A stretch of DNA of 64,000 nt, from assembly GCA_028289425.1 (NCBI GenBank), contig JANQPL010000014.1:122170-186169 (forward strand), written 5' to 3'. The stretch comes from Alphaproteobacteria bacterium (GTDB lineage Bacteria > Pseudomonadota > Alphaproteobacteria > JANQMY01). Made by a program: the position numbers and the translations under genes. The notes beneath the pieces were generated by a model. It did not search any database and was not told where the DNA came from. It worked only from the letters and a program-made list of their open reading frames with translations. Of the stretch, positions 2-38,143 are shown in pieces. The first letter of the stretch is position 1; every line of letters begins with the position of its first letter.

Positions 2-685
2 GAGTTTGCCTTTGTGGTGATCGGCCTTGCGCTCACCTTGGGTTTGATGCCGGCGGACACCGCCCAATTCATGCTGATCGTCACGGGCATCACCATGATG
101 CTCACTCCGATCGTCGCCGAGGTCGGGAAACGCATCGCCGCGGCAACGGAGCACGAACCCCATGCCGAACATCACGCCCATGGGGTGGATGCCTTTTCAG
201 AGGGCGAGGGGCACATTATTCTGGCGGGTTTCGGCCGCGTGGGGCGCATGCTGGCGCGCATCCTGGATCGGGAACATGTGACGTTTCTCGCTTTGGACTT
301 GGACGGTCCGTCGGTGGGAGAACAACGCAGCCTGGGCCGGCCCGTCTTCTATGGAGATGCCTCTCGCATTGAACTGCTTAAACGCGCGGGCGCGCAGACC
401 GCCGCCGCGGTGGTGGTTACCATGGACGACCCGGAAGCAGCGGAACGCGTGGTGAGCAGTGTACGGAGCAATTGGCCGGCCCTGCCGATTTACGCCCGGG
501 CGCGGGACCGGCAACACGCCCGCAGGCTGTTGGGACATGGCGCCACGGACGTGGTTCCCGAAACCGTCGAATCGAGCCTGCAATTGAGCCTGCGCGTGCT
601 GCGCGGCATCGGCACCTCGGAAGAGGTGTCCGCGAAGCGCATCAGCTTGGAGCGCGAAGCCGCCCTCGACGAGTTGAAACTCTAG
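2..685 (+). CDS. Partial (5'-truncated) glutathione-regulated K+ efflux / Kef-type cation:proton antiporter; last TM helix plus C-terminal RCK/TrkA-N NAD-binding domain.
   Basis: The reading frame is open from base 2. It encodes a hydrophobic helix followed by the ILAGFGRVGRMLARIL Rossmann motif and an RCK C-terminal region. The stop is at 685. Confidence 0.75.
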   Translation, partial: EFAFVVIGLALTLGLMPADTAQFMLIVTGITMMLTPIVAEVGKRIAAATEHEPHAEHHAHGVDAFSEGEGHIILAGFGRVGRMLARILDREHVTFLALDLDGPSVGEQRSLGRPVFYGDASRIELLKRAGAQTAAAVVVTMDDPEAAERVVSSVRSNWPALPIYARARDRQHARRLLGHGATDVVPETVESSLQLSLRVLRGIGTSEEVSAKRISLEREAALDELKL

Positions 686-686
686 A

Positions 687-1220
687 TCAAGAGCCCCAAT
701 AACGGAACCGGCCCGTATCCACATGGATGAATCCGGTTTTGGAGTAGAGCCCAACACCGCCGGCCTGGAGCGAGCGGGCGGCGGTATGTAGGTCAGTGAC
801 GGGCACACCAGCCATGGCGATATCGATGGCGCGGCCCTGCGTATGCAGGCTGCGCTTGGCCACACCACGGCCTTGTTGCCTTAGATTCGTGTTGGTTTTT
901 GGGGAACGGTAGCCGCAGATTACCTGGAACGGTTGGTTCGTCCCCACATTCCGGCTAATCCGGTGGAGCTGATTTAGCAGCGACCGATCGATCTGCATCA
1001 CTTCGTTCTGCCGCCAGTCACGCAGAACATGATCAATATCGGCGCAGGCACTCTCATCAAAGGCGCCGTCGGCCCAATAAACAGCAGACAGCTTTTCATT
1101 TGTGTGCAGATGATGAAAGGAGAGGCTTCTTACATCTCGAGCTTGTGCCGCCCTCGCCACAAAAGGCGTACACACGATCGCTCCAGCGACCGAGTACCTT
1201 AGAAATTCACGCCGCCGCAT
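687..1220 (-). CDS. DUF882 / peptidase M15A-like (YcbK family) protein with a Tat signal.
   Basis: The N-terminus is MRRREFLRYSVAGAIVCTPFVARAA, a twin-arginine signal. Conserved YcbK-like segments follow (GYRSPKTN, HTQGRAIDI). Confidence 0.7.
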   Translation of the reverse strand: MRRREFLRYSVAGAIVCTPFVARAAQARDVRSLSFHHLHTNEKLSAVYWADGAFDESACADIDHVLRDWRQNEVMQIDRSLLNQLHRISRNVGTNQPFQVICGYRSPKTNTNLRQQGRGVAKRSLHTQGRAIDIAMAGVPVTDLHTAARSLQAGGVGLYSKTGFIHVDTGRFRYWGS

Positions 1221-1329
1221 CTAGACAACTCCACAAATGGTTCTGCCCATCCGCCAATTGACTATTCCGCCTTGAAGGCAGGAATGTGGCCGTAAGCGAA
1301 ATGCCTCCCAGCCATTACACTGCTAGCGT

Positions 1330-1857
1330 TCAGCGCCCCGACCCAAGCCCCCGCAGCCAAGAGAAAAAACGGCTAATCTCATCGGCGCGGAACATGATGA
1401 GCAAGGCGACAACCGATAGCACCCAAGGTCCCAACAAGCGCCCAACCCCATCCCAGCCAATCGGAGGAGATGCGTCAACATAAAACAGAGTGTTCTGGAT
1501 CGCGGCCGGAAACGTGTCCAAAAAGAAGAAAAGTCCGATCAGGAAAGTACCGATGGCTAGCAAATCTCGGGCATCGATAGACGTCATGTCCACAACGCCA
1601 GCAGAATCGGCCGGCAGTGCCCACGCAGCTATTCTGCGCGCCAGAAACCAAAGCGTGCCGCTTACACAAATGAGCGAAATGTAATAAGCGTGGAGCAAAG
1701 CCTCGCCACCTAGAGCGAAAACGAATGGTATGTATCCGGCCATCGTCGTAAAGAACCAATAGGCCGCGAGTACCCGGATGATCACCATGGTAATTGCTTC
1801 GATAGCCGTCAATTGACCGTCCTCCGTCATTGATTCACTATACGGGGAATGAAACAC
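1330..1857 (-). CDS. Hypothetical integral membrane protein.
   Basis: 175 aa with several hydrophobic helices. No recognisable motif. Confidence 0.4.
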   Translation of the reverse strand: MFHSPYSESMTEDGQLTAIEAITMVIIRVLAAYWFFTTMAGYIPFVFALGGEALLHAYYISLICVSGTLWFLARRIAAWALPADSAGVVDMTSIDARDLLAIGTFLIGLFFFLDTFPAAIQNTLFYVDASPPIGWDGVGRLLGPWVLSVVALLIMFRADEISRFFSWLRGLGSGR

Positions 1858-1910
1858 ACACGAAAGTCGATCGGCCGCGATGCACTCACGTGGGCAACAA
1901 TCGAGGCGAA

Positions 1911-2996
1911 CTACAAAGACAGAATGAATCCGTCCTTCGGGTCGGCTTTACCGCTCAGCACTTCAAGATACACCTTCTCAACGGCGCCTTGTCCGCTTTC
2001 ACGCCGAACTGTCACCCACTCTTTGGTATGGGGTATGAACTTCGACCAGCTTTCGGCCACGCGGGATTGGAATCCCGCCGGGCTCCAGTCCTCCATACGC
2101 TTGCTCACGTGATCCGGGGCGAAAAACTGCGTGGGAGGAGCGCCCGGCAGACCATCGCGTCCGCCGGCGATCGCCTCCCAATGCGTGCCGCCCACAAGGC
2201 AGCTATATTTGAGATTATCCTTGTAGTGATGATGAATGTCGCTTAGCACCTTGGCATTTCCGGCCATGTCCACAAACACGGCCTGTTCCTCAGGCAGCAG
2301 TGAAATATCATCGTAACTGACGACAGTGTCATAGCAGCCCAAGTTCTTGACGAAGTCCGCATTGCCCGCAGATGTCAGCCCAACAACGGTTGGCCGATCT
2401 CCTTCCCGGTTGAAGAGGCAATACGCAAGGCCGATCGATGTTTTACTCGAGGCGCTCGACAGAACGATCGTTTGGGCACCAAAGAAGTCTTCGTCCGCAA
2501 TAAAATCATCGATCAGAAACGACGTAATAAACAAAGGCCGGAACAACATGATTTGCGGCTCCAAATCGCGACTATACATGGGGTCTTTGTCCGTGAACGT
2601 GTACTGATTATAGACATTATGCAGTTTTGCCCGATGGGCCGCGCCATCAAAGAACCCACTCGCTGTTGCTTTCGCAGGTTCTACGATCAGCTGATTGGAC
2701 ATGGGGAAATAGCCGTAAACACGATGGCCCTGCGACACCCCATCCGCACGCGTTTCAACCACGGTCCCAAATCCCCAAACGGGCACACGCCCATAGCCAT
2801 CCGTTGCCGGAAAAAAATCCCAATAGCGAAAAGACTCTCCTGCCACTGCATAGGTGATGTTATTGGCCGTGAAAGCGAAGGAATCCACACTTAACAAGGC
2901 CTGTCCGTTTTTGAGCCCCGCCACGTCATGACTTGCAAATCTTGTTTCCTGGAAATTGTCCTTCTTGACCTGAAAATCGGTGATGGTGTGTGTCAT
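1911..2996 (-). CDS. Hypothetical protein, DUF2855-like.
   Basis: 361 aa ORF with coding-like composition. The N-terminal pattern (TDFQVKKDNF, FRYWDFFPA) is recalled from DUF2855 proteins, from memory only. Confidence 0.45.
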   Translation of the reverse strand: MTHTITDFQVKKDNFQETRFASHDVAGLKNGQALLSVDSFAFTANNITYAVAGESFRYWDFFPATDGYGRVPVWGFGTVVETRADGVSQGHRVYGYFPMSNQLIVEPAKATASGFFDGAAHRAKLHNVYNQYTFTDKDPMYSRDLEPQIMLFRPLFITSFLIDDFIADEDFFGAQTIVLSSASSKTSIGLAYCLFNREGDRPTVVGLTSAGNADFVKNLGCYDTVVSYDDISLLPEEQAVFVDMAGNAKVLSDIHHHYKDNLKYSCLVGGTHWEAIAGGRDGLPGAPPTQFFAPDHVSKRMEDWSPAGFQSRVAESWSKFIPHTKEWVTVRRESGQGAVEKVYLEVLSGKADPKDGFILSL

Positions 2997-3017
2997 GTCT
3001 GTGGATCCTTTTTATGG

Positions 3018-3941
3018 TCAGCGCAGGTGATTGCCGACAATCTCTTCCGACACCTCGGTCAAGCGTCGCGCTAGTTCCTTATCGCGCGCATACTTACTCG
3101 GCGTTTGGGGATTGCAATCCGAAAAGTACAATCCGCTCACCCCGTCCAGTGACGGATGCGTTGCCACGTAACACTGGGTGGCCGCGCCCTGTGGAATTGT
3201 CCGCATCATCGGCAACAGCAGCACGCCCAAGGCCATGGAAAACAGACCCTCCATATTGCGCCCCAGGTTCGTGGCGATCACACCGGGGTGCAGCGAGTTT
3301 GCCGTGACGGACGTATCTTTCAGGCGCTCCGACAGGTCCAAGGCAAAAAGCGCATTGGCAAGCTTGGATTGTCCGTAGGCGCCCCAGGCGGAATACCCGT
3401 CTTCTCCGGAGAGATTGTCGAATTGTATGCCCCCCTTGGGCGCTTGTTGGTGCGCGGAACTCGACAGCATGACGATACGGCCGGCCGGTGCGTCCAGAAC
3501 TTGTGGCAACAGCCGGTTCACCAGAATGAAATGGCCAAGATGATTTGTGACGAATTGCAGTTCCAGGCCGTAGCGTTGTTCCAGCCGGGGCAACGCCATA
3601 ATCCCCGCATTGCAGATCAGCATATCGATGGGCGTATCAAGGCGCCTCACATCGTCCGAGCACGCGGTAACACTGTCAAAATCCGACAGCTCACAGGCAA
3701 CAGGCGTCGTTTTGCCTTTGACACTTGCGCAGGCTTCGGCTGCTTTTTCCTGGGTCCTGGCGGCACCGATCACATGGGCGCCGCGCATTGCCAGCACCCG
3801 CATGGTTTCAAGGCCCAGGCCCGAATTGCACCCGGTGACCAGGGCGGTCTTGCCGGAGAGATCAGTTCCCGCCGTTACCTGCTCGGCGGTCGACCGCCGG
3901 TTGAACGCGCTTTTGGGTGGATTTGTTTCGCGGGCGGCCAT
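3018..3941 (-). CDS. Short-chain dehydrogenase/reductase (SDR) family oxidoreductase.
   Basis: Gly-rich NAD(P) motif LSGKTALVTGCNSGLGLE and a classical SDR length of 307 aa. Confidence 0.8.
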   Translation of the reverse strand: MAARETNPPKSAFNRRSTAEQVTAGTDLSGKTALVTGCNSGLGLETMRVLAMRGAHVIGAARTQEKAAEACASVKGKTTPVACELSDFDSVTACSDDVRRLDTPIDMLICNAGIMALPRLEQRYGLELQFVTNHLGHFILVNRLLPQVLDAPAGRIVMLSSSAHQQAPKGGIQFDNLSGEDGYSAWGAYGQSKLANALFALDLSERLKDTSVTANSLHPGVIATNLGRNMEGLFSMALGVLLLPMMRTIPQGAATQCYVATHPSLDGVSGLYFSDCNPQTPSKYARDKELARRLTEVSEEIVGNHLR

Positions 3942-4146
3942 GGTGTCCTCTCGTTTATCTGTCGCTCTTTTTTATTCTTCTGAGGCCGAAGACACTCACT
4001 ATAGCCACGCCGCTGCCGGGGTGCACACAATTTCCGTGTTTGAAACCTGCTTGCGCCCCGTCTATTTTCAGCGCGGATGGCAATCAATGACGCCTTGCAG
4101 GCTTGCAACATTCGCGCTGCAGATAGCAAACAATGAGGACCGCTTC

Positions 4147-5385
4147 ATGAATGTGATGCCCGACGTGACCACCCCCGAAGATGCCGGCATGTGTGCTGAG
4201 CGTTTGGACCGGCTGCCCCGGTTCTTCCAGTCCTATCTTGAGCGCAAGAAAGTCTCCGGTCTCTCCCTGTTGGTGTCGCGCGGCGGTCAAATCGTCCATC
4301 AATCTCACCAAGGGGTCATGGATTGGGACACGAATAAACCGATTGCGGCCGATACGCTGTTCCGCATCTATTCGATGACCAAACCGATCACCAGCGTCGC
4401 GCTCATGATGCTGTATGAAGAAGGGGCCTTTCGGTTGGAACATGAGGTGTACCGCTATCTGCCGGCGTTTCGCGATAGCCAGGTATTTGAAAGCGGAGAT
4501 GCGGACAACTACACAACCCACGCGCCCGAACGCCCCATTCAAATTCGAGATCTGCTGACCCACACCTCCGGGCTGACGTACGATTTTTTGGTTCAACACC
4601 CGGTCGACAGGCTCTATCGGCGCGCCAAGCTGCGGGGCATCGGCGCCGAAGACATGAAGCTTGAAACCTTCGTCCAAAAACTTGCGGAACAGCCATTGGT
4701 ATTCTCGCCCGGCACCAAATGGAATTACAGCTTTGCAACGGACGTATGCGGACGACTAGTGGAAGTGCTGTCGGGCAAACCGTTGGACGCGTTTTTTGCG
4801 GAGCGCATTTTCAAGCCGCTCCAAATGCCGGATACGTTTTTCCGCGTGCCTCAAGACAAAGCCGACCGGCTTGCTTCCTGTTATGAGCGCGACCCGCAGA
4901 CCAAGGAAATCAAACTCCAGGACCGGGGTGCCACAAGCGCATATTTGAACGACCGCGCTTTCCTGTCGGGCGGCGGCGGGCTGGTGTCGTGCCTGAACGA
5001 CTATCATCGCTTTTGCCGGATGTTGTTGAATGGCGGCGAGTTGGACGGCCAACGTTTATTGAGCCCCACCACCGTGGAATTCATGACTCAAAACCATCTG
5101 CCTGGCGGCAAAACAATGGTCGACATGGGCGATGAAACCTTCAGCGAAACGCGCATGGACGGTTCGGGCTTTGGGCTTGGATTTTCGGTAGTGCTCAATC
5201 CGGCGGACGCCATGGCGCCGGTAAGCCAAGGCGCCTTTTCCTGGGGCGGTGCGGCCAGCACCTATTTTTGGATCGATCCGGCGGAGGATCTCATCGGCAT
5301 TATGATGACACAGCTCATGCCGTCCGCCGCCTACCCGCTGCGCCCCCAATTCCAACAGCTCGCTTACGCTGCAATCACAGAGTGA
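4147..5385 (+). CDS. Serine hydrolase of the beta-lactamase / esterase (class C-like, EstB-type) family.
   Basis: The S-x-x-K motif in YSMTKPITS marks a serine nucleophile. Overall layout is that of a family VIII esterase / beta-lactamase. The ORF track begins at 3610, but that 5' extension overlaps the antisense SDR gene, so the start was placed at the in-frame ATG at 4147. Confidence 0.7.
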   Translation: MNVMPDVTTPEDAGMCAERLDRLPRFFQSYLERKKVSGLSLLVSRGGQIVHQSHQGVMDWDTNKPIAADTLFRIYSMTKPITSVALMMLYEEGAFRLEHEVYRYLPAFRDSQVFESGDADNYTTHAPERPIQIRDLLTHTSGLTYDFLVQHPVDRLYRRAKLRGIGAEDMKLETFVQKLAEQPLVFSPGTKWNYSFATDVCGRLVEVLSGKPLDAFFAERIFKPLQMPDTFFRVPQDKADRLASCYERDPQTKEIKLQDRGATSAYLNDRAFLSGGGGLVSCLNDYHRFCRMLLNGGELDGQRLLSPTTVEFMTQNHLPGGKTMVDMGDETFSETRMDGSGFGLGFSVVLNPADAMAPVSQGAFSWGGAASTYFWIDPAEDLIGIMMTQLMPSAAYPLRPQFQQLAYAAITE

Positions 5386-12293: not shown

Positions 12294-12476
12294 GTCATCC
12301 CAGCGAACGCTGGAGTGCACGGCGACCGGGCTAATACAAGCGTCATCCCGGGCACACCGCAGCACGAAGTGGTGCGGTGTAGAACCGGGATCTCTATCAA
12401 CCTGTGCCAAGTTACCCTAATGGATCCCGGATCAGCACCGCGTCATTTCATGCCGCGGAGCATCCGGGATGACGGC
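12294..12476. repeat. REP/BIME-like composite palindromic element; tandem hairpin modules built on ATCCCGG / CCGGGAT arms. Copy A.
   Basis: GTCATCCCGGG...CCGGGATC...GGATCCCGG...CATCCGGGATGAC. It lies between two convergent genes. A second copy with the same arm consensus is at 33076..33213. Confidence 0.6.
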
Positions 12477-17325: not shown

Positions 17326-17627
17326 GCTGACGCTCTCCCTCCTGATAACGAGACCTTGCACGCCTGAAGTTCATAATTTCCCCATTCTTCGAGACGCTCG
17401 CTTTGCTCGCCCTCAGGATGAGGAAATTTGATTGTCATAAAGATGGCCTCACCCTGAGGGCCGCCCACCGGGCGGTGTCTCGAAGGGTGCGGCCATCGGC
17501 GCGATGTCCCTGCTCTTCGTTGCGCGCCATTAGGAGCGGAGGTGAGCCGGAATGTCCAGGGAAGAAACGCGCAAACCCGCCAATTTTCACGTGCCGAGAA
17601 TAGCGTTCTACTTTTGATGGAGCGCCG

Positions 17628-21273: not shown

Positions 21274-22521
21274 ATGGATTTCAACGACACACCCCAAGAA
21301 GCCGCCTTCCGCAAAGAGGTGCGCGCGTGGCTTGACGCCAATGCGCCAACCGAATTGAAAGAACCGTTGGAGTCCAGCGGCTTCGGCAACACCAATGTGG
21401 GCGATGCGGACATCATGGAAGTGTCGAAGGCCTGGCAAAAGAAGAAGGCGGATGCCGGTTGGGCCTGCTTGCAATGGCCGAAAGAATATGGTGGCCGCGG
21501 CGCCACGCCCATCGAGCGGGTCATTTGGAGCCAGGAAGAAGGCGTCTATGCGGCGCTCAGCAGTGTCTTCCTCATCGGTCAGGGCATGTGCGGGCCGACC
21601 ATGATGGCCTATGCCAGCGAAGAGCATAAGAGGCATTACTTGCCGAAGCTTGCCAGCGGCGAGGAAATCTGGTGTCAGCTCTTTTCAGAACCGGCCGGCG
21701 GCTCGGACTTGGCGGGCCTGCGCACGAAAGCCGAAAAAGACGGCGACGATTGGGTCATCAACGGTCAAAAGATTTGGACGTCCGGCGCCCATTTCAGCGA
21801 TTACGGTATCCTCATCACACGGACGGATCCGACAGTACCCAAGCACAAAGGCCTGACCATGTTCTTCTTGAGCATGAAATCGCCCGGCATCGAAATCCGC
21901 CCCATCAAGCAAGTGAACGGCCAAAGCGGCTTCAATGAAGTATACTTTACCGATGTGCGCATTCCCGATCACCAGCGCTTGGGCGATGTGGGCGAAGGCT
22001 GGAAAGTGTCCCTCACCACGCTGATGAACGAACGCCTGTCCATCGGTGCGGGCATGCCCACGGGCTTCCCGGAAATGTTCGAACTGGCGCGCAGCTTCGA
22101 AACCGTGGACGGCCCCGCCATTAAAGACAAAGCGTTGCGGTCAAGATTGGCGGACTGGCACGTGAAAACCAACGGGCTCAAATACTCCGCCGCCCGCTCC
22201 ATCAGCGCCCTGTCGCGCGGCGAAACGCCGGGCCCGGAAGCCAGCATCGGCAAGCTGGTGGCCGGCACCACCATGCAGGACATTGCGCAAGCGGCGTTGG
22301 ACTTGCAGGGGTTGAGCGGCGCGCTCACCGATCCGGATCACGCGGATGCGGCCGCCCGCTTCCAAGCCATGTTGCTGCGCTCGCCCGCCACGCGCGTTGA
22401 AGGGGGCACGGACGAAATCCTGCGCAACATCATCGCGGAACGGGTGCTGGGCCTGCCGGGCGACATGCGCGCGGACAAAGACGTGCCGTTCAACGAAATC
22501 CCGACGGGCAAGGCGAACTAG
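21274..22521 (+). CDS. Acyl-CoA dehydrogenase family protein (partner 2 of the pair).
   Basis: ACAD fold with a C-terminal VEGGTDEI motif. It starts 23 bp after the previous ACAD. Confidence 0.8.
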   Translation: MDFNDTPQEAAFRKEVRAWLDANAPTELKEPLESSGFGNTNVGDADIMEVSKAWQKKKADAGWACLQWPKEYGGRGATPIERVIWSQEEGVYAALSSVFLIGQGMCGPTMMAYASEEHKRHYLPKLASGEEIWCQLFSEPAGGSDLAGLRTKAEKDGDDWVINGQKIWTSGAHFSDYGILITRTDPTVPKHKGLTMFFLSMKSPGIEIRPIKQVNGQSGFNEVYFTDVRIPDHQRLGDVGEGWKVSLTTLMNERLSIGAGMPTGFPEMFELARSFETVDGPAIKDKALRSRLADWHVKTNGLKYSAARSISALSRGETPGPEASIGKLVAGTTMQDIAQAALDLQGLSGALTDPDHADAAARFQAMLLRSPATRVEGGTDEILRNIIAERVLGLPGDMRADKDVPFNEIPTGKAN

Positions 22522-22540
22522 TTTCTGTTGACTGACTAAG

Positions 22541-22613
22541 CCATCCCGCTCCCCCTTCCCAACCACCCGAACCAGGGTACCCTCGGAGGGGTTGGGAAGG
22601 GGGAGCGGGATGG
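22541..22613. repeat. C-rich perfect hairpin element: 24-bp arms CCATCCCGCTCCCCCTTCCCAACC / GGTTGGGAAGGGGGAGCGGGATGG. Copy 1.
   Basis: Perfect 24-bp inverted repeat with a 25-nt loop, directly after an ACAD gene. A related copy is at 36396..36460. It may act as a terminator but has no U-tract. Confidence 0.65.
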
Positions 22614-22681
22614 TCAAGTTTTAATGCGTCAGACAACAGGGTAGCGGCAAGCGCGAAACAAGAACGGAGACGCATTCAAAA

Positions 22682-23464
22682 ATGACGTTTAAACCTTTCG
22701 ATCTTTCCGGCCGGGTGGTGCTGATCACCGGCGGCAATGGCGGCATCGGGCTCGGCATGGCCGAGGGCGTGGCACAAGCCGGCGCGGATGTGTGCATTTG
22801 GGGCACCAATGAAGAAAAGAATGCCGATGCGCTCGCCAAATTGAAAGCACATGGCACGAAGGTCGCCGCCAAGAAATGCGATGTGTCCGACCGGTCGGCG
22901 GTTGAATCGAGTTTCGCTGAAACGCTGGAAGAATTCGGCAGGGTGGACGGCTGTTTCGCCAATGCCGGTGCAGGCGCGCGCGGCACGCCCTATCACGAAA
23001 TGCCCGACGAAGAATGGCAGCGCATCCTAAACATCAATCTATGGGGCGCCCATTACGTGCTGCAGCAAGCGGCCGGCCACATGAAAGCCCGCGCGGATGA
23101 CGGCGACGCTTTTGGCCGCTTGATCGGCACCGCAAGCCTCGCCGCCGTCTCCGGACAAGCGCGCGGCGAACATTATGCCGCCACCAAAGGCGCGATCGTT
23201 GCGATGATCAAGGCGCTGGCCGTGGAATACGCACGCTACAACGTCACGGCGCACACCTTGCTGCCGGGCTGGATCGAAACCGCCATGACGGAATCCGCCT
23301 TTTCCTGGGATAAGTTTGCCGCAAATGTGATGCCGCGCATCCCCATGCGCCGTTGGGGCCAACCGGAAGACTTCGCGGGCATTGCGGTTTACATTATGAG
23401 CGAGGCGAGCCGATACCACACGGCGGAAACCTTCCTCATCGATGGGGGATACTTCGTGTTCTAG
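22682..23464 (+). CDS. SDR family oxidoreductase.
   Basis: NAD(P) motif ITGGNGGIGLG and an SDR catalytic tetrad context. 260 aa. Confidence 0.8.
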   Translation: MTFKPFDLSGRVVLITGGNGGIGLGMAEGVAQAGADVCIWGTNEEKNADALAKLKAHGTKVAAKKCDVSDRSAVESSFAETLEEFGRVDGCFANAGAGARGTPYHEMPDEEWQRILNINLWGAHYVLQQAAGHMKARADDGDAFGRLIGTASLAAVSGQARGEHYAATKGAIVAMIKALAVEYARYNVTAHTLLPGWIETAMTESAFSWDKFAANVMPRIPMRRWGQPEDFAGIAVYIMSEASRYHTAETFLIDGGYFVF

Positions 23465-33239: not shown

Positions 33240-34289
33240 TTACGATGAAGCCGTCCCCCGCCCCACAATCCACGGCAGATCGAGAAACGTTTTGATGCCC
33301 GGATGCGCCGCCACCACATAGGGAATGGCGTTGACCGCATGCATGCCGGTGGCAAGCAACCCGTCGCTGATCCAATCGGCCTTGAATTCCATATGCATGC
33401 GCGGTTCGCCGGAAATGGTGATGGAGTGATCCCCCTGGGGCCAGTCGGGCGCGACGCTTCCATGCATGCGCCAAACGGTTTCGTGGACAATCACTTTCTT
33501 GCCGCCCTTCATGCCAGCCCATTCCCAGTGCTGACCCGCGATGGTTCCCTTGCGGACAATACCGGCCGCGGTTTCCAGATCGTCCGGCGCGTAGGCGCGG
33601 ACCGTCTCTTCCGCAATGCCGTCAAGATCCAAGCCCAGGCCGTCGGCGATCATCTGGACGTTTTCACGAAAGAGCCCCGTCAGCCAAAACTTGTAGCGCT
33701 CGATTTGCTTGGCGAATTCTTCTTCGGTTTTGCCGAACCCCATCATGTCGAACATGATTTCGGGGGAAGGATAGAACTGGAAATTGCTGATCTCGCGCAC
33801 ATAGATCTGCTCGATGCGCTTTGACAGCGACGACATGGTGAGCGGCAGCACGTCGCCCAGCCAGCCCGGGTTGAGCCCCGTGGAATGAAATGTGGCGCCG
33901 CCCCGCCGGCAGGCCTCTTCCAATTTGTGGGTGATCTCTTCCCCATAGACCTTGGGATACATGTAGCCCACCGTGGTGATCACGTTCTTGCCCGCCGCCA
34001 GCAGCTTGCAGAAGTTCTCGATGTCGGCATAGCGGTCGTCGCCATAAACCAGCGACGGCAATGCGGTGTGGATCACCACATCCGCATGGGCATGGACGAT
34101 CTCGTCCACATGATGGGTCGATTTAACGCCAAGGGGCTCGATGCCCGCGATCACGCCCGCATCTTGCCCGGCCTTGTCGGCGGAATAGACATACAGGCCG
34201 GCAAGCTTCAGGTCGGGCCGCTCCGCCACCGCGCGGATCACATGCTTGCCCACATTGCCGCTCGACCATTGAATGACTTTGGTGACCAT
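33240..34289 (-). CDS. DapB-like NAD(P)-binding oxidoreductase (dihydrodipicolinate reductase-like / amine dehydrogenase family).
   Basis: N-terminal Rossmann motif VIQWSSGNVGKHVIRAV. The start is placed at the ATG at 34289 (MVTKVIQW). The ORF track begins at 34355. Confidence 0.55.
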   Translation of the reverse strand: MVTKVIQWSSGNVGKHVIRAVAERPDLKLAGLYVYSADKAGQDAGVIAGIEPLGVKSTHHVDEIVHAHADVVIHTALPSLVYGDDRYADIENFCKLLAAGKNVITTVGYMYPKVYGEEITHKLEEACRRGGATFHSTGLNPGWLGDVLPLTMSSLSKRIEQIYVREISNFQFYPSPEIMFDMMGFGKTEEEFAKQIERYKFWLTGLFRENVQMIADGLGLDLDGIAEETVRAYAPDDLETAAGIVRKGTIAGQHWEWAGMKGGKKVIVHETVWRMHGSVAPDWPQGDHSITISGEPRMHMEFKADWISDGLLATGMHAVNAIPYVVAAHPGIKTFLDLPWIVGRGTASS

Positions 34290-34314
34290 GGGGCACCTCC
34301 TTATATTAAGTGCT

Positions 34315-34392
34315 GGCGCCATCCTAGTGTCGTGGTTCAGAAGTTCGCAATACAATCTCAGCGAGTCCGGAAGCGAACTTCTGAACCTAAAA
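34315..34392. repeat. 78-bp hairpin element, CTAGTGTCG...CGACACTAG with inner 15-bp stem GGTTCAGAAGTTCGC. Copy 1 of a tandem pair.
   Basis: A long imperfect inverted repeat framed by CTAGTGTC / GACACTAG. It is followed directly by a diverged second copy. Confidence 0.6.
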
Positions 34393-34405
34393 CGACACTA
34401 GATTC

Positions 34406-34481
34406 AATGATTTCCTAGTGTCCTTACGAATCCGAAGTTCGTAGGGAGCAAGCTGTTTTAATGCAACGAACTTCGGATTCG
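34406..34481. repeat. 76-bp hairpin element, CTAGTGTCC...GGACACTAG with inner stem GAATCCGAAGTTCGT. Copy 2 of the tandem pair.
   Basis: Same terminal motif and a related inner stem (xxTxCxGAAGTTCGx) as copy 1. Confidence 0.6.
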
Positions 34482-34538
34482 GGACACTAGCGGGATCGCC
34501 CCGGGGACAAAGCGTTTTCGGCACAGGGCTTTAATAGA

Positions 34539-35030
34539 ATGGCGAACATGAGAAATGTGACCATCAGAGCCGCAACGCTCGACGACAAAGACGCATCGTT
34601 GCGGCTCTACGAGCAAATAGATGAGCTGCACCGTCAAGCGCGGCCGGATATCTTTCGCGTCCCCGATGGCGCACGGCGGTCAGAGACATTCCTCAAAAAG
34701 CGCATTGAGAATGACGGGTGTGCCATGTATGTGGCGCAGGCCGGGGAGACGGTCGTCGGACTTGCAACCATTATTCTGAGGCGTACACGGGAAGATTCCA
34801 TCCTGCGGAAGCAGTACTATGCGGAGGTCGACGAGATTGTCGTCGATACCGCTCACCAGCAGCGCGGCACGGGAACGCTTCTGCTGGAGGCGTGTTTGGA
34901 CTGGGCGCGCCGGCAGCCGGATGTGACCGCCGTGACGCTCGGTGTTCACGAATTTAACGCAAACGCCCGGCGGTTCTATGAGAGCAAAGGCTTCAAAACC
35001 TTCTACCGGCAGATGGAGATTGAGCTTTAG
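34539..35030 (+). CDS. GNAT family N-acetyltransferase.
   Basis: Acetyl-CoA-binding motif QQRGTGTLLLEA. 163 aa. Confidence 0.75.
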   Translation: MANMRNVTIRAATLDDKDASLRLYEQIDELHRQARPDIFRVPDGARRSETFLKKRIENDGCAMYVAQAGETVVGLATIILRRTREDSILRKQYYAEVDEIVVDTAHQQRGTGTLLLEACLDWARRQPDVTAVTLGVHEFNANARRFYESKGFKTFYRQMEIEL

Positions 35031-35085: not shown

Positions 35086-35574
35086 TTAGCGCCTTCTCTT
35101 TCGCTTCTTACGGTCAGCCTTGTCTTTTTCAACGGGATAAACTTGATGCTCTGGGTCCCACCACAACAATCTTAAGATGTTTTCATGCTGCGGCCACCAA
35201 AACGCCCAAGCGCGATTTTTGCCAGTAAGTCGCAGTGAAATCAGCTCATCGAATTGGTCCATGCCCAATTTCTGCAACCTAACTTGAGCACTGCTATGTA
35301 GTTTATTGACCCCAATTCTGTGAGATCCTCCAGATTTTATTTGATCCCAGTTCTTACCTTCAAATTCGCGGAGCTTGTTGATTACTTCTAAGGCCTTGCC
35401 ACTCTCGGCAAGTTGGGACCAGCCAAAAGGACCTTCGCTGTCAGTGTTTTCAAACTTCCAGGCGAGCATCATATCGCTTTTTTTAGACGGAGCAGCGACT
35501 TTTGGGAGGCTCTTTGTATCGCGAATCCTAAATTCCGATTTTGGCCGGCGGGCTTTCCCCTTGCTTCTTTTCAC
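35086..35574 (-). CDS. Putative toxin partner of the Panacea antitoxin; 162 aa with K/R-rich termini and no recognisable domain.
   Basis: Its GTG start overlaps the antitoxin TAG stop by 1 nt (TAGTG on the minus strand). Both the N- and C-termini are basic. It lies in a low-GC islet. In-frame ATG codons also occur at 35472 and 35469. Confidence 0.5.
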   Translation of the reverse strand: MKRSKGKARRPKSEFRIRDTKSLPKVAAPSKKSDMMLAWKFENTDSEGPFGWSQLAESGKALEVINKLREFEGKNWDQIKSGGSHRIGVNKLHSSAQVRLQKLGMDQFDELISLRLTGKNRAWAFWWPQHENILRLLWWDPEHQVYPVEKDKADRKKRKRRR

Positions 35575-36005
35575 TAGAGCAAGCCGCTATAGTACTCGGC
35601 CATTGCGGAGTGAGAAATTTCTCTGTTTGAACGCGCGTCTTCCGGCAAACCCTCTCGCGCTTCCTTCCAGGGCCGTTCTCGATGAGTTAGCGCACTGAGC
35701 TGCGCTGCGCTCTTCTTCCCGTAGTATTCTACAACGACCTCAATCGTCTCTTTTTCTTCGTCTGATAGGTTACGAATGTCCCCGCTTGGAGGAGTGGAGA
35801 TATTGAACCGCCCTTTGTGCCAATCATATAGCTCGCGTACAACCGGCCCATTCGCCCACGCAAGAACCCTCTCTTTGAAAATCGGTTTCTCATCCCAAAC
35901 CAAAGACCAGGCTTGTGAGTAGTAGACGAGCTTTTGAAGCTTCATTGCACTCATCTTGCCGTGAAGCTTCACGATGTATCGAGCTACATCGAATACGTTG
36001 GACAT
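35574..36005 (-). CDS. Panacea-domain (DUF4065) SocA-like antitoxin.
   Basis: The N-terminal pattern MSNVFDVARYIVKLHG..MSAMKLQKLVYYSQAWSLVW...AWANGPVV matches the DUF4065 / SocA consensus. The start is set at the ATG at 36005. The ORF track begins at 36047. Confidence 0.75.
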   Translation of the reverse strand: MSNVFDVARYIVKLHGKMSAMKLQKLVYYSQAWSLVWDEKPIFKERVLAWANGPVVRELYDWHKGRFNISTPPSGDIRNLSDEEKETIEVVVEYYGKKSAAQLSALTHRERPWKEAREGLPEDARSNREISHSAMAEYYSGLL

Positions 36006-36038
36006 GGCGCGAATTCCTCGTACGAACCAACATAGCAA

Positions 36039-36056
36039 TTGATTCATTCAAATCAA
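36039..36056. promoter_or_regulatory. Palindromic candidate operator TTGATTCATTCAAATCAA, just upstream of the antitoxin start.
   Basis: TTGATT / AATCAA inverted repeat 34 bp upstream of the antitoxin ATG on the minus strand, within an AT-rich promoter region. Confidence 0.4.
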
Positions 36057-36276
36057 TAGGTTGCATATTCGTGAGTCTAAACAATAAGTTACTTACAAAG
36101 CCTCACCAACGAAACCGTGTTATTTCAATCTTGGAAAACACAAAGATCGCGACTTCGGCAAGCCATAGAGTTAGCTGGTAGCAGAGATACCTATTCGTGT
36201 ATAATTCTTAATCCGAGGGGAGGCCCCGGTACGCATGAGAGATTCCGATGGCCTCGACAGATTTCCGCCCACTCAT

Positions 36277-36307
36277 GGCCCGCAATAGCGGGCCATTCGT
36301 GTTTTTG
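36277..36307 (+). terminator. Rho-independent-terminator-like hairpin GGCCCGCAATAGCGGGCC followed by ATTCGTGTTTTT.
   Basis: A 7-bp GC stem followed by a T-run on the plus strand. It sits in the 550-bp leader between the TA islet and the Rieske oxygenase gene. Confidence 0.4.
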
Positions 36308-36395
36308 GACCCTGCCGACAGGGGGGCCAGATCCCGAAATCGGGATGAACCCCATGCGCCCATCTTTTCAATAGATATTGAAGGTGCCTCGCCGG

Positions 36396-36460
36396 CCCGC
36401 TCCCCCGTCCCAACCACCCGCCAGGGTACCGTATTCGGGCGGTTGGGACGGGAGAGCGGG
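36396..36460. repeat. C-rich hairpin element, copy 2: CCCGCTCCCCCGTCCCAACC / GGTTGGGACGGGAGAGCGGG.
   Basis: 20-bp arms with one mismatch. The loop (ACCCGCCAGGGTACC...) is related to the loop of copy 1 at 22541..22613. Confidence 0.6.
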
Positions 36461-36488
36461 TGGCCTGGTCATCCGTCAAACAAAGCCG

Positions 36489-36592: not shown

Positions 36593-38143
36593 ATGACAGA
36601 GACAACCACCGGAACCAACCGTTCCGCCGGCATCACCTATCTGGAACTGCTCGACCAAGACAGCCATCCGGTCCGGCCGATTTTGCGGGTCGACAGCCCC
36701 ATGGAACCGGGGCCCACCAAGGTGCCCGTTGAGCGCTATTTCTCGAAAGAGTTCCACGATCTGGAAGTGGAGAAGGTGTGGAAGCGGGTGTGGCAGATGG
36801 CCTGCCATGAAGACGATATTCCCGACGTGGGGGACTATCACGTCTACGACATCGCCAATCTGTCCTTCCTCATTGTACGGACGGCTGAGGACGAGTTTAA
36901 GGCCTATTGGAATGCCTGCCTGCACCGTGGGCGGCAATTGAAGGAAAAAAGCGGCAAGAAGGCGTTTGCGTTCCGCTGCCCGTTCCATGGCTGGGCGTGG
37001 AATTTGGACGGGTCGATCATGCAGATCCCCTGTCAATGGGATTTCCCCACCGTCGATCCGAAAGAGTACAGCCTGCCGGAAGTGCAGCTTGACCGGTGGG
37101 GCGGCTTCATCTTCATCAACCCGGATGAAAACAACACCCAGTCGCTCGCCGATTATCTGGGCGATCTGTCGGACCAATTCACGCTGCTGCCCTATGAGAA
37201 GCGGTGCAAGGTGGCCCATGTGGCGAAGGTGTTGCGGTGCAATTGGAAAGTGGCGCAAGAAGCCTTTAGCGAAGCCTATCACGTGATCGCCACCCACCCG
37301 ACGATCCTGGAAACCATCGGCGATGCCAACACCAAATATGACGTGTTCGGAAATTATTCCCGGGCCATGTCGCCCAACTTCACGCCGAGCCCGCATTTGG
37401 CCAATATGCCTCATTTCGAGCATTTGGACGATGCGAAGCTGTACACGAAACTGCGCCATCCGCTCTCCGGCCACGTATATGAGCGCGGCGAAGACGGGCT
37501 AGTGCATGTGACCAACGGCAAAGGCACGGTCAGCAAGTTTACAGCCGGCGGCGATTGGGTCGAAGGCGAGTTGATCAACGCCGACCCGCATATGTGCGAT
37601 TGGATCGGCGGCATGCAACTGCCCGACGCGGATGAGGTGCCCTCCCCCGACCCCTATGACGTGCCCGAAGGCACCAATGTGCGGGCCGCCATGGCGGAAG
37701 GGCCGCGCAAGGCGCTACGGGACGTGTTGGGCGACAGGGTGGAAGAGATCAGCGATGCGGAATTGCTCGATTCGATCTATTACACCGTGTTCCCGAACTT
37801 TCACCCCTGGGGTTCGTTCAATCAAATCGTTTACCGATTCCGTCCGTATGGGGATGATCCGGATATGTGCATTCACGAATGCATGTATTTCGCACCCGCC
37901 CCCAAGGGCGACAAACGGCCGCCGGCGGCGCCCATCCACTGGCTGGGTGTAGACGATGATTGGTGCGAAGCACCGGAGCTCGGCATGTTGGCCAAAGTGT
38001 TCAATCAGGATGTGGTGAATATGCCCTATGTTCAGAAGGGCCTCAAAACCATGAAACAGCCCTATGTGATCTTCGCGGATTACGGCGAAACGAAGCCGCG
38101 TCATTTCCACAAATTGCTGAACGAGTGGATCGACAAACCTTAG
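36593..38143 (+). CDS. Rieske [2Fe-2S] non-heme iron oxygenase, alpha subunit (aromatic-ring-hydroxylating type).
   Basis: Rieske motif CLHRG...CPFHGW and a mononuclear iron site E..AYHVIATH. A GGAGGAGAG RBS precedes the ATG at 36593. The ORF track begins at 36248. Confidence 0.8.
   Translation: MTETTTGTNRSAGITYLELLDQDSHPVRPILRVDSPMEPGPTKVPVERYFSKEFHDLEVEKVWKRVWQMACHEDDIPDVGDYHVYDIANLSFLIVRTAEDEFKAYWNACLHRGRQLKEKSGKKAFAFRCPFHGWAWNLDGSIMQIPCQWDFPTVDPKEYSLPEVQLDRWGGFIFINPDENNTQSLADYLGDLSDQFTLLPYEKRCKVAHVAKVLRCNWKVAQEAFSEAYHVIATHPTILETIGDANTKYDVFGNYSRAMSPNFTPSPHLANMPHFEHLDDAKLYTKLRHPLSGHVYERGEDGLVHVTNGKGTVSKFTAGGDWVEGELINADPHMCDWIGGMQLPDADEVPSPDPYDVPEGTNVRAAMAEGPRKALRDVLGDRVEEISDAELLDSIYYTVFPNFHPWGSFNQIVYRFRPYGDDPDMCIHECMYFAPAPKGDKRPPAAPIHWLGVDDDWCEAPELGMLAKVFNQDVVNMPYVQKGLKTMKQPYVIFADYGETKPRHFHKLLNEWIDKP

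Follow-up and report, generated by a model that had tools for sequence, protein, structure and literature searches.

Two C-rich hairpins lie in intergenic DNA of the window, by which we mean the whole 64-kb stretch analyzed here (Table 1). Copy 1 stands between the gene of an acyl-CoA dehydrogenase (ACAD), which among named sequences is closest to that of Parvibaculum (82%), and the gene of a short-chain dehydrogenase (SDR), while copy 2 occupies part of a 545-nt spacer flanked by a minus-strand SocA/Panacea-like gene and a plus-strand Rieske oxygenase gene. Both hairpins are intergenic and copy 1 directly follows the ACAD gene, as a preliminary description of this DNA had stated.

Table 1. 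Positions of the two hairpin copies and of their neighboring genes in the 64-kb window.
Feature	Position	Strand	Remark
Copy 1, core hairpin	22541..22613		24-bp perfect arms (CCAT + CCCGCTCCCCCTTCCCAACC), 25-nt spacer, T:A subtype
Copy 1, tip motif GGGTACCC	22575..22582		Nearly invariant in the family, asymmetric in the loop
Copy 1, extended palindrome	22525..22640		Outer arms CTGTTGACTGAC and GTCAGACAACAG included
Copy 2, core hairpin	36396..36460		20-nt arms, one C·A mismatch, G:C subtype
Copy 2, tip motif GGGTACC	36424..36430
Acyl-CoA dehydrogenase (ACAD) gene	21274..22521	+	Stop codon 19 nt upstream of copy 1
Short-chain dehydrogenase (SDR) gene	22682..23464	+	Begins 68 nt beyond copy 1
SocA/Panacea-like gene	35574..36047	-	Flanks copy 2
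Rieske oxygenase gene	36593..38143	+	132 nt downstream of copy 2

The two hairpins and other palindromes of the window

The arms of copy 1 (22541-22564 and 22590-22613; arm sequence CCATCCCGCTCCCCCTTCCCAACC) are 24 nt long, 100% complementary and separated by 25 nt, exactly as first reported. Outside of them, a further inverted repeat is formed by CTGTTGACTGAC at 22525-22536 and GTCAGACAACAG at 22629-22640, making the palindrome longer than originally noted, and these outer arms are part of a T-rich/A-rich outer module of the TTTGTTTGA / TCAAACAAA type. Copy 2 is indeed related to copy 1 and has a similar loop, but its 20-nt arms (36396-36415 and 36441-36460) are not perfect as had been claimed, since A36453 stands opposite C36403. 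When an inward ACCC(G)/(C)GGGC extension of 4-5 bp is included, the stem of copy 2 comprises 25-nt arms that are 92% complementary around a 15-nt loop. The tip of copy 2 has the opposite orientation to that of copy 1.

No third copy was detected in the window, in line with the number given previously. The arm consensus, allowing up to three mismatches, gave four arm matches in 64 kb compared to 0.01 expected from shuffled sequences, and a covariance model of the family run with no filters returned only the two copies, at 22533-22621 (83 bits) and at 36384-36472 on the minus strand (72 bits). Comparison of the flanks of copy 1 with those of copy 2 gave no alignment, showing that they are unrelated. 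The predicted folding energies of both copies are far below those of shuffled sequences (z = -6.6 to -9.8), with RNA folds of -66 to -80 kcal/mol for window segments of 101-126 nt. A TTTT run is present 9 nt downstream of copy 1. No U-tract was found within 0-2 nt of either stem and an intrinsic-terminator consensus scan identified no terminator at copy 1 or copy 2, confirming the earlier view that the hairpins lack a U-tract and are unlike simple terminators. Similarly, no promoter-like site was found beside either window copy, and Rfam 15 gave no match at gathering score in the window, with generic miRNA-precursor hits below half their thresholds as the only result. As judged from its letters, the G-rich arm of the hairpin may have G-quadruplex potential. 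In Logan SRR20820731, for which the same organism was independently assembled from short reads, one contig ends inside copy 1 at 22570 and another starts inside copy 2 at about 36403, as is expected of a multi-copy repeat in de Bruijn assembly.

The window contains several other palindromes. Two adjacent hairpins of about 80 nt at 34322-34495 belong to a different family, having 23-24-nt loops and perfect inner arms (GGTTCAGAAGTTCGC/GCGAACTTCTGAACC and CGAATCCGAAGTTCGT/ACGAACTTCGGATTCG), and each is bounded by CCTAGTGTC...GACACTAG. They are located in the divergent spacer between 33240-34355 (minus) and 34539-35030 (plus), and could form a second family of palindromic repeats or be paired operators. 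At 12341-12474, the 52-nt arms of a large imperfect inverted repeat are 77% complementary across a 30-nt spacer, have the ends CGTCATCCCGG...CCGGGATGACG and each include a small hairpin, and at 17409-17461 a short GC-rich inverted repeat, GCCCTCAGGATGAGG / CCTCACCCTGAGGGC, surrounds a 23-nt spacer. In addition, a canonical terminator-like hairpin on the plus strand about 100 nt upstream of copy 2 (36275-36296; ATGGCCCGC-AATA-GCGGGCCAT, then TCGTGTTTTT) follows a TATAAT-like box near 36200, and the region 36117-36310 may encode a small transcript or leader beside the SocA/Panacea-like gene pair at 35086-36047 (minus).

Distribution and anatomy of the repeat family

An exact-match scan with CCCGCTCNCCCNTCCCAACC, using one genome per species, matched at least 111 blocks of 8 kb, and these loci do not include the window. 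Within the alphaproteobacterial blocks, plus- and minus-strand matches were paired about 45 nt apart and thus represent hairpins; single-arm matches in other phyla fell in coding sequence (e.g., a release-factor motif) and occurred at the number expected by chance. We extracted 80 hairpin copies including the two from the window, the other 78 originating from at least 24 genomes. The carriers represent at least five named orders, i.e., Minwuiales, Hyphomicrobiales, Hyphomonadales, Geminicoccales, and Sneathiellales. A single Minwuiaceae MAG contributed at least 44 blocks, with many copies at contig ends, and the closed MAG OZ245840.1 contributed at least 10. Other carriers were Hyphomonas sp. 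FCG-A18, a Hyphomonas MAG, Methyloligellaceae and Hyphomicrobiaceae MAGs, one Geminicoccaceae MAG and one Sneathiellales MAG. Metagenome contigs provided 30 more copies with both arms perfect, among them 12, five and three on single contigs of 1.07, 2.0 and 1.93 Mb, respectively. In total, about 110 hairpin copies were found in the fetched genome and metagenome loci.

Scanning 2.9 million viral contigs for phage or GTA carriage gave no hits. On plasmids, only a diverged variant was found, carried by three sphingomonad replicons (Novosphingobium resinovorum pSA1, Sphingomonas sanguinis, and Sphingopyxis sp. FD7). The arms of this Sphingomonadales variant, CCCGCTCCCCCTCCCGACC / GGTCGGGAGGGGGAGCGGG, carry compensatory changes on both sides, showing that the sequence of the family is subject to drift.

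Alignment of 75 distinct copies, oriented by their loop, defined the element as a palindromic repeat of about 90 bases (90-130 bp, containing no ORF) with a full consensus stem of about 34 bp. The outer stem of about 10 bp is variable (consensus GCCnnGCCRG) and stays complementary. It is followed by the core, CCCGCTCCCCC[G/T]TCCCAACC, which is near-invariant, although this is partly an ascertainment effect as an exact-match scan finds only such copies. An inner stem extension, in which ACCC pairs with GGGT, leads to an asymmetric apical loop of 16 nt with the structure N4-6-(A)GGGTACCC-T-N1-2. The GGTACCCT part of the tip is nearly invariant and positioned off-centre, giving each copy an orientation, and both orientations are about equally common. 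The arm CCCGCTCCCCCKTCCCAACC is not self-complementary and a GTAG motif is absent. In many copies, and at both copies of the window, outer modules are present that read T-rich (CTTTTGTTTGA-like) upstream and as the A-rich complement downstream on each strand.

Covariation supports the stem. Of the cells in the stem alignment, 92% were paired, compared to 85% in shuffles and 39-56% with slid partners, and changes on both sides were seen in 15 of the 34 stem pairs; none of 500 shuffles reached the observed values. For instance, columns 24/72 are occupied by G:C in 54 copies, T:A in 17, A:T in one and C:G in one, with two copies unpaired, whereas four pair types are found at columns 12/84 and six at columns 6/90. 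The G:C and T:A subtypes coexist in the window, in OZ245840.1 and in other genomes, and an orthologous copy present in two genomes at 94% nucleotide identity has undergone a compensated C:G to T:A change in one of them. We also considered a T-shaped tip, consisting of two 4-bp mini-hairpins (ACCC/GGGT) resembling a parvovirus ITR. Pair counts do not discriminate between this structure and the stem extension; two copies with a G...C change favor the 4-bp stem extension, and DNA as well as RNA folding favors the 34-bp stem with a 16-nt loop, and the T-shaped tip was rejected.

Genomic position, spread and neighboring insertion sequences

When compared with gene ends, the copies were mostly found near gene 3' ends. 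Using a crude, uniform ORF call on all loci, 78 of 113 copies were flanked on either side by a gene no more than 400 nt away. Convergent-gene spacers held 40 of these 78 copies (51%) compared to a baseline of 24% in the same loci (p = 1.6e-7), and 30 were in co-directional spacers. Only eight (10%) were in divergent spacers, compared to a baseline of 22% (p = 0.007), and copy 2 is in such a divergent position. The core lay at a median of 33 nt from a stop codon, and often the element constitutes nearly the whole intergenic spacer. In co-directional contexts the orientation of the tip relative to transcription was 8:7, and G·U versus A·C mismatches were balanced between the strands (48:48 in the outer stem and 8:9 in the core; column 33 showed G·T 7:0, though several of these copies are related). 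The balance of both features gives no sign of a strand-specific RNA gene, and a strand-specific RNA function was thus discarded. At one locus (L111; JANQFL010000089.1, 1-80) an ORF enters the element and finds its stop codon TAG in the loop, with coding sequence replacing the left arm, so that the 3' end of the gene overlaps a half copy.

The genes neighboring the copies are diverse and no gene family recurs among them. Orthologous conservation of position was rejected for the syntenic loci L044 and L048, as their copies flank opposite sides of the gene they have in common. In those parts of the element that are not fixed by the search query, copies resemble each other more within than between genomes (outer stem 68 vs. 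43%, tip 75 vs. 60%). Moreover, a relative with a 92% identical ACAD and the same gene order has an empty site at the position of copy 1, with 17 nt from the ACAD stop to the SDR start compared to 160 nt in the window, a comparison that is not base-precise because the intergenic spacers do not align.

Nested, truncated, mosaic and loop-interrupted copies exist as well, and together these observations favor an origin of the copies by proliferation over one by descent. Hairpins of the Minwuiaceae MAG have modules A, B, and C on their flanks in every combination, these modules being found only beside hairpins (e.g., in loci L003, L017, L052, L069, and L075), and in L069 the arms of the palindrome reach about 79 bp. 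Both there and in one metagenome genome, variable orders of the hairpin, such short modules and a second palindrome give rise to mosaic clusters. Modules A (AGAGTCTGTTCAAGAATGCC) and C (GGATTCCTCTGTTTGGGCC) of the Minwuiaceae MAG each contain GANTC, the CcrM methylation motif. Two further arrangements were observed. Locus L047 (OZ245032.1, 2064001-2072000) contains at 700-4700 three tandem units of about 2 kb, each starting with a hairpin copy, the third of which is degenerate; the units hold small ORFs, one with an Ntox24 toxin domain, and the locus resembles an array of polymorphic-toxin cassettes with the repeat as punctuation. A recurrent chimeric form on Ga0315336 contigs (L126 12086-12210, L140 9097-9219, and L133 7700-7834) consists of a lone C- or G-rich arm and a small hairpin (AACGCC-TTCG/TGGT-GCGTT) beside a complete copy, and may have arisen by rearrangement or form a related sub-family.

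No mobilizing gene was identified around the copies. A phmmer search with E. coli RayT (E ≤ 10) and a scan for the HUH and Y-x-x-x-NP motifs, which together covered about 1.1 Mb surrounding the about 110 copies and have limited sensitivity for distant RAYT groups, gave no hit. Likewise, tblastn of RayT against plasmids gave no hit on the sphingomonad replicons carrying the variant. Group 1 RAYTs, the largest RAYT group, are rare in Alphaproteobacteria (PMC5581495). In the fetched loci, no transposase family recurs near the copies and no parent insertion sequence with matching terminal repeats was found, and genes located between closely spaced copies are ordinary. Furthermore, no direct repeats indicating a target-site duplication were found at the palindrome boundaries of 80 copies, which speaks against a DDE-type MITE and fits single-strand transposition of the HUH/Y1 type as in REPINs.

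On one metagenome contig (L142; Ga0114932_10032156, 390-3469), two copies bracket the transposase genes of an IS481-family and a DDE_5 (IS701-like) element. The former carries terminal repeats of its own, with a 6-bp duplication at a distance of 8 nt from the hairpin, and the latter interrupts the center of a second palindrome, between TCGAAAATGG and CCATTTTCGA, which is the equivalent of module B. Having their own ends or lying within another palindrome, these elements are guests in the repeat cluster and not parents of the hairpin. The hairpin pair of this contig has identical flanks and mirror-image tips, which may reflect a real inversion or an artefact of assembling a palindrome that exceeds k in length. 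Repeat clusters of this kind seem to attract insertion sequences.

Nature and possible function of the element

The repeat family is real and well-defined, and the interpretation given in the preliminary description was essentially right. We consider it probable that both hairpins are copies of a non-autonomous, proliferating palindromic repeat of the REP/REPIN/MITE kind, which has multiplied in many alphaproteobacterial lineages and persists across them. Of the REP-like mobile or regulatory family suggested earlier, the dispersed family has been borne out, whereas a REP in the strict sense has not, as the GTAG motif is absent and no RAYT gene was found around the copies.

Like the REP/REPIN-RAYT systems of E. 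coli and Pseudomonas (Bertels & Rainey; PMC5581495), the element is a short extragenic palindrome in tens to hundreds of copies, with a hairpin built from two inverted arms around a short spacer; it is sited at gene 3' ends and in convergent spacers, shows no target duplications, and displays compensatory stem evolution as well as genome-specific sequence populations. In contrast to these systems, its arms are not palindromic REP units and have no GTAG-type 5' motif, its stem is much longer (about 34 bp), its core is common to several orders and not to one genus, and no RAYT was found near the about 110 copies. The mosaic clusters resemble the BIMEs of E. coli and the RIMEs of rhizobia in organization only. 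The sequence of the element is unrelated to E. coli palindromic units, and a Rhizobium gave one chance-like single-arm match among the matches listed. Size (100-150 bp), long inverted arms and long RNA hairpins upon co-transcription are shared with Correia/NEMIS elements of Neisseria and with SMAG/ERIC-type MITEs, and hairpins of this type are RNase III-processed or mRNA-stabilizing. However, Correia elements are restricted to one genus and possess TA target duplications, promoter elements and an IHF site, features not seen here. Integron attC sites are found in cassette arrays next to intI and have R/L boxes and extrahelical bases. The present copies are instead solitary between ordinary genes, their stems are perfect with no bulges, and TCCCAAC/GTTGGGA does not fit the R/L boxes RYYYAAC/GTTRRRY.

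A possible, though rather unlikely, alternative is that the element is a cis element selected by the host, either marking transcript ends in both directions between convergent genes (for termination, insulation or mRNA stabilization) or offering a conserved alphaproteobacterial protein, e.g., gyrase or a nucleoid protein, a place to bind or a cruciform. Its conservation would then be due to selection and not to selfish spread. The strong enrichment between convergent genes near stop codons would agree with this, as would the copies that nearly fill their spacer, the near-invariance of the core and the GGTACCC tip across several orders, and the compensated stem changes, including the one at an orthologous copy. 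On the other hand, a termination hairpin would need no invariant sequence, and the stem is not followed by a U-tract; the T-rich upstream and A-rich downstream modules on both strands are the reverse of a bidirectional terminator. Compared to intrinsic terminators, which are likewise GC-rich hairpins right after stop codons, the stem is about three times longer, is conserved in sequence and has a U-rich tract before it and none after. Also, copy number varies greatly among genomes, orthologous sites are empty in relatives, about 10% of the copies, with copy 2 among them, lie in divergent promoter regions, and the mosaic and truncated copies resemble mobile-DNA debris. A host function is nevertheless compatible with a proliferating repeat, because REPs do both.

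The remaining alternatives appear weaker. That the element is a classical MITE, i.e., an internally deleted insertion sequence of the DDE type with the C-rich arms as its terminal inverted repeats, moved by the transposase of that insertion sequence, is improbable. Its long inverted-repeat arms, small size of 90-130 bp, lack of a coding region and genome-specific subfamilies, as well as the metagenome contig on which two copies bracket DDE transposase genes of the IS481 family and of DDE_5, would be in keeping with a MITE. Yet the palindromes of 80 copies have no flanking direct repeats, the two elements on that contig are guests with other ends, no transposase family recurs near the copies, and conservation falls on the inner stem and tip rather than on the termini. 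Even less likely is a small structured RNA gene or a riboswitch-like cis-regulatory RNA family; the very stable fold, strong stem covariation and conserved loop motif are offset by the absence of an orientation bias relative to flanking genes, by balanced G·U wobbles on the two strands, by the lack of promoter-like sites beside the window copies and of Rfam matches, and by a structure that is simply a perfect duplex, free of internal loops and junctions. Finally, the occurrence of only two copies in the 64-kb window could have arisen by chance similarity, or from two remnants of one segmental duplication in the source genome, the outcome that the preliminary description had named as contradicting a repeat family. 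With 0.01 matches expected, flanks that cannot be aligned and about 110 copies in other genomes, we regard this as practically negligible.

If the element is a proliferating repeat, a trans-acting enzyme would act on folded single-stranded DNA, recognizing its invariant core and tip, and copy the element to new sites with no target-site duplication; the best-known candidate would be an HUH/Y1-type transposase such as a RAYT, though none was found here. Copies would survive mainly in short spacers after stop codons, notably between convergent genes, where insertion may be tolerated. A transcribed copy would be expected to form a highly stable hairpin with a stem of about 34 bp at the 3' end of the transcript, which could act as a barrier to 3' exonucleases, a processing site or a leaky block to transcription. 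Hairpins of REP, Correia, and ERIC elements are known to protect upstream mRNA from 3' exonucleases, to be cut by RNase III or to attenuate read-through, and by analogy we infer comparable RNA-level effects for hairpins at transcript ends in this family. As ACAD and SDR are only 17 nt apart in the relative, like a tight operon, copy 1 probably alters their coupling, uncoupling or re-weighting the expression of the two genes.

Among the points against the proliferating-repeat reading are that no mobilizing gene was identified around the about 110 copies and that the arms are non-palindromic and lack the GTAG motif of classical REPs. REPs are normally species- or genus-specific, and the same 20-24-nt core in several orders is thus unusual for REPs and could reflect a host function instead. 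We speculated whether the element is the cis partner of a hitherto unrecognized, class-wide alphaproteobacterial system, in which a conserved protein other than a classical RAYT reads the invariant 24-bp core and the GGGTACCC tip of a folded hairpin, a proposal that we hold to be tentative and on balance doubtful. If true, this protein would either propagate the element as a REPIN-like replicator with a new type of mobilizer, or use it as a transcript-end or chromosome-structuring signal between convergent genes, and the persistence of the G:C and T:A subtypes in distant genomes as well as the mirror-image tips would reflect its workings. No description of the element was found in the literature by sequence or keyword, in a search of incomplete coverage that leaves an earlier description possible. 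The family could be new and yet of an ordinary kind, the breadth of the core and the missing mobilizer being its only non-routine features.

Palindromic repeat families shape genomes by breaking short-read assemblies, seeding rearrangements and attracting insertion sequences, and contigs of two assemblies indeed end inside copies of the present element. Because the core is shared by several orders, many of them known from metagenomes only, it would be a useful marker for annotation and binning, and, if the mobilizer is not a RAYT, the element would provide a route to a new hairpin-recognizing enzyme. Repeats of this kind inside operons change the relative expression of neighboring genes, and in the window the practical result is that an ACAD-SDR gene pair, contiguous in a close relative, is split by copy 1.
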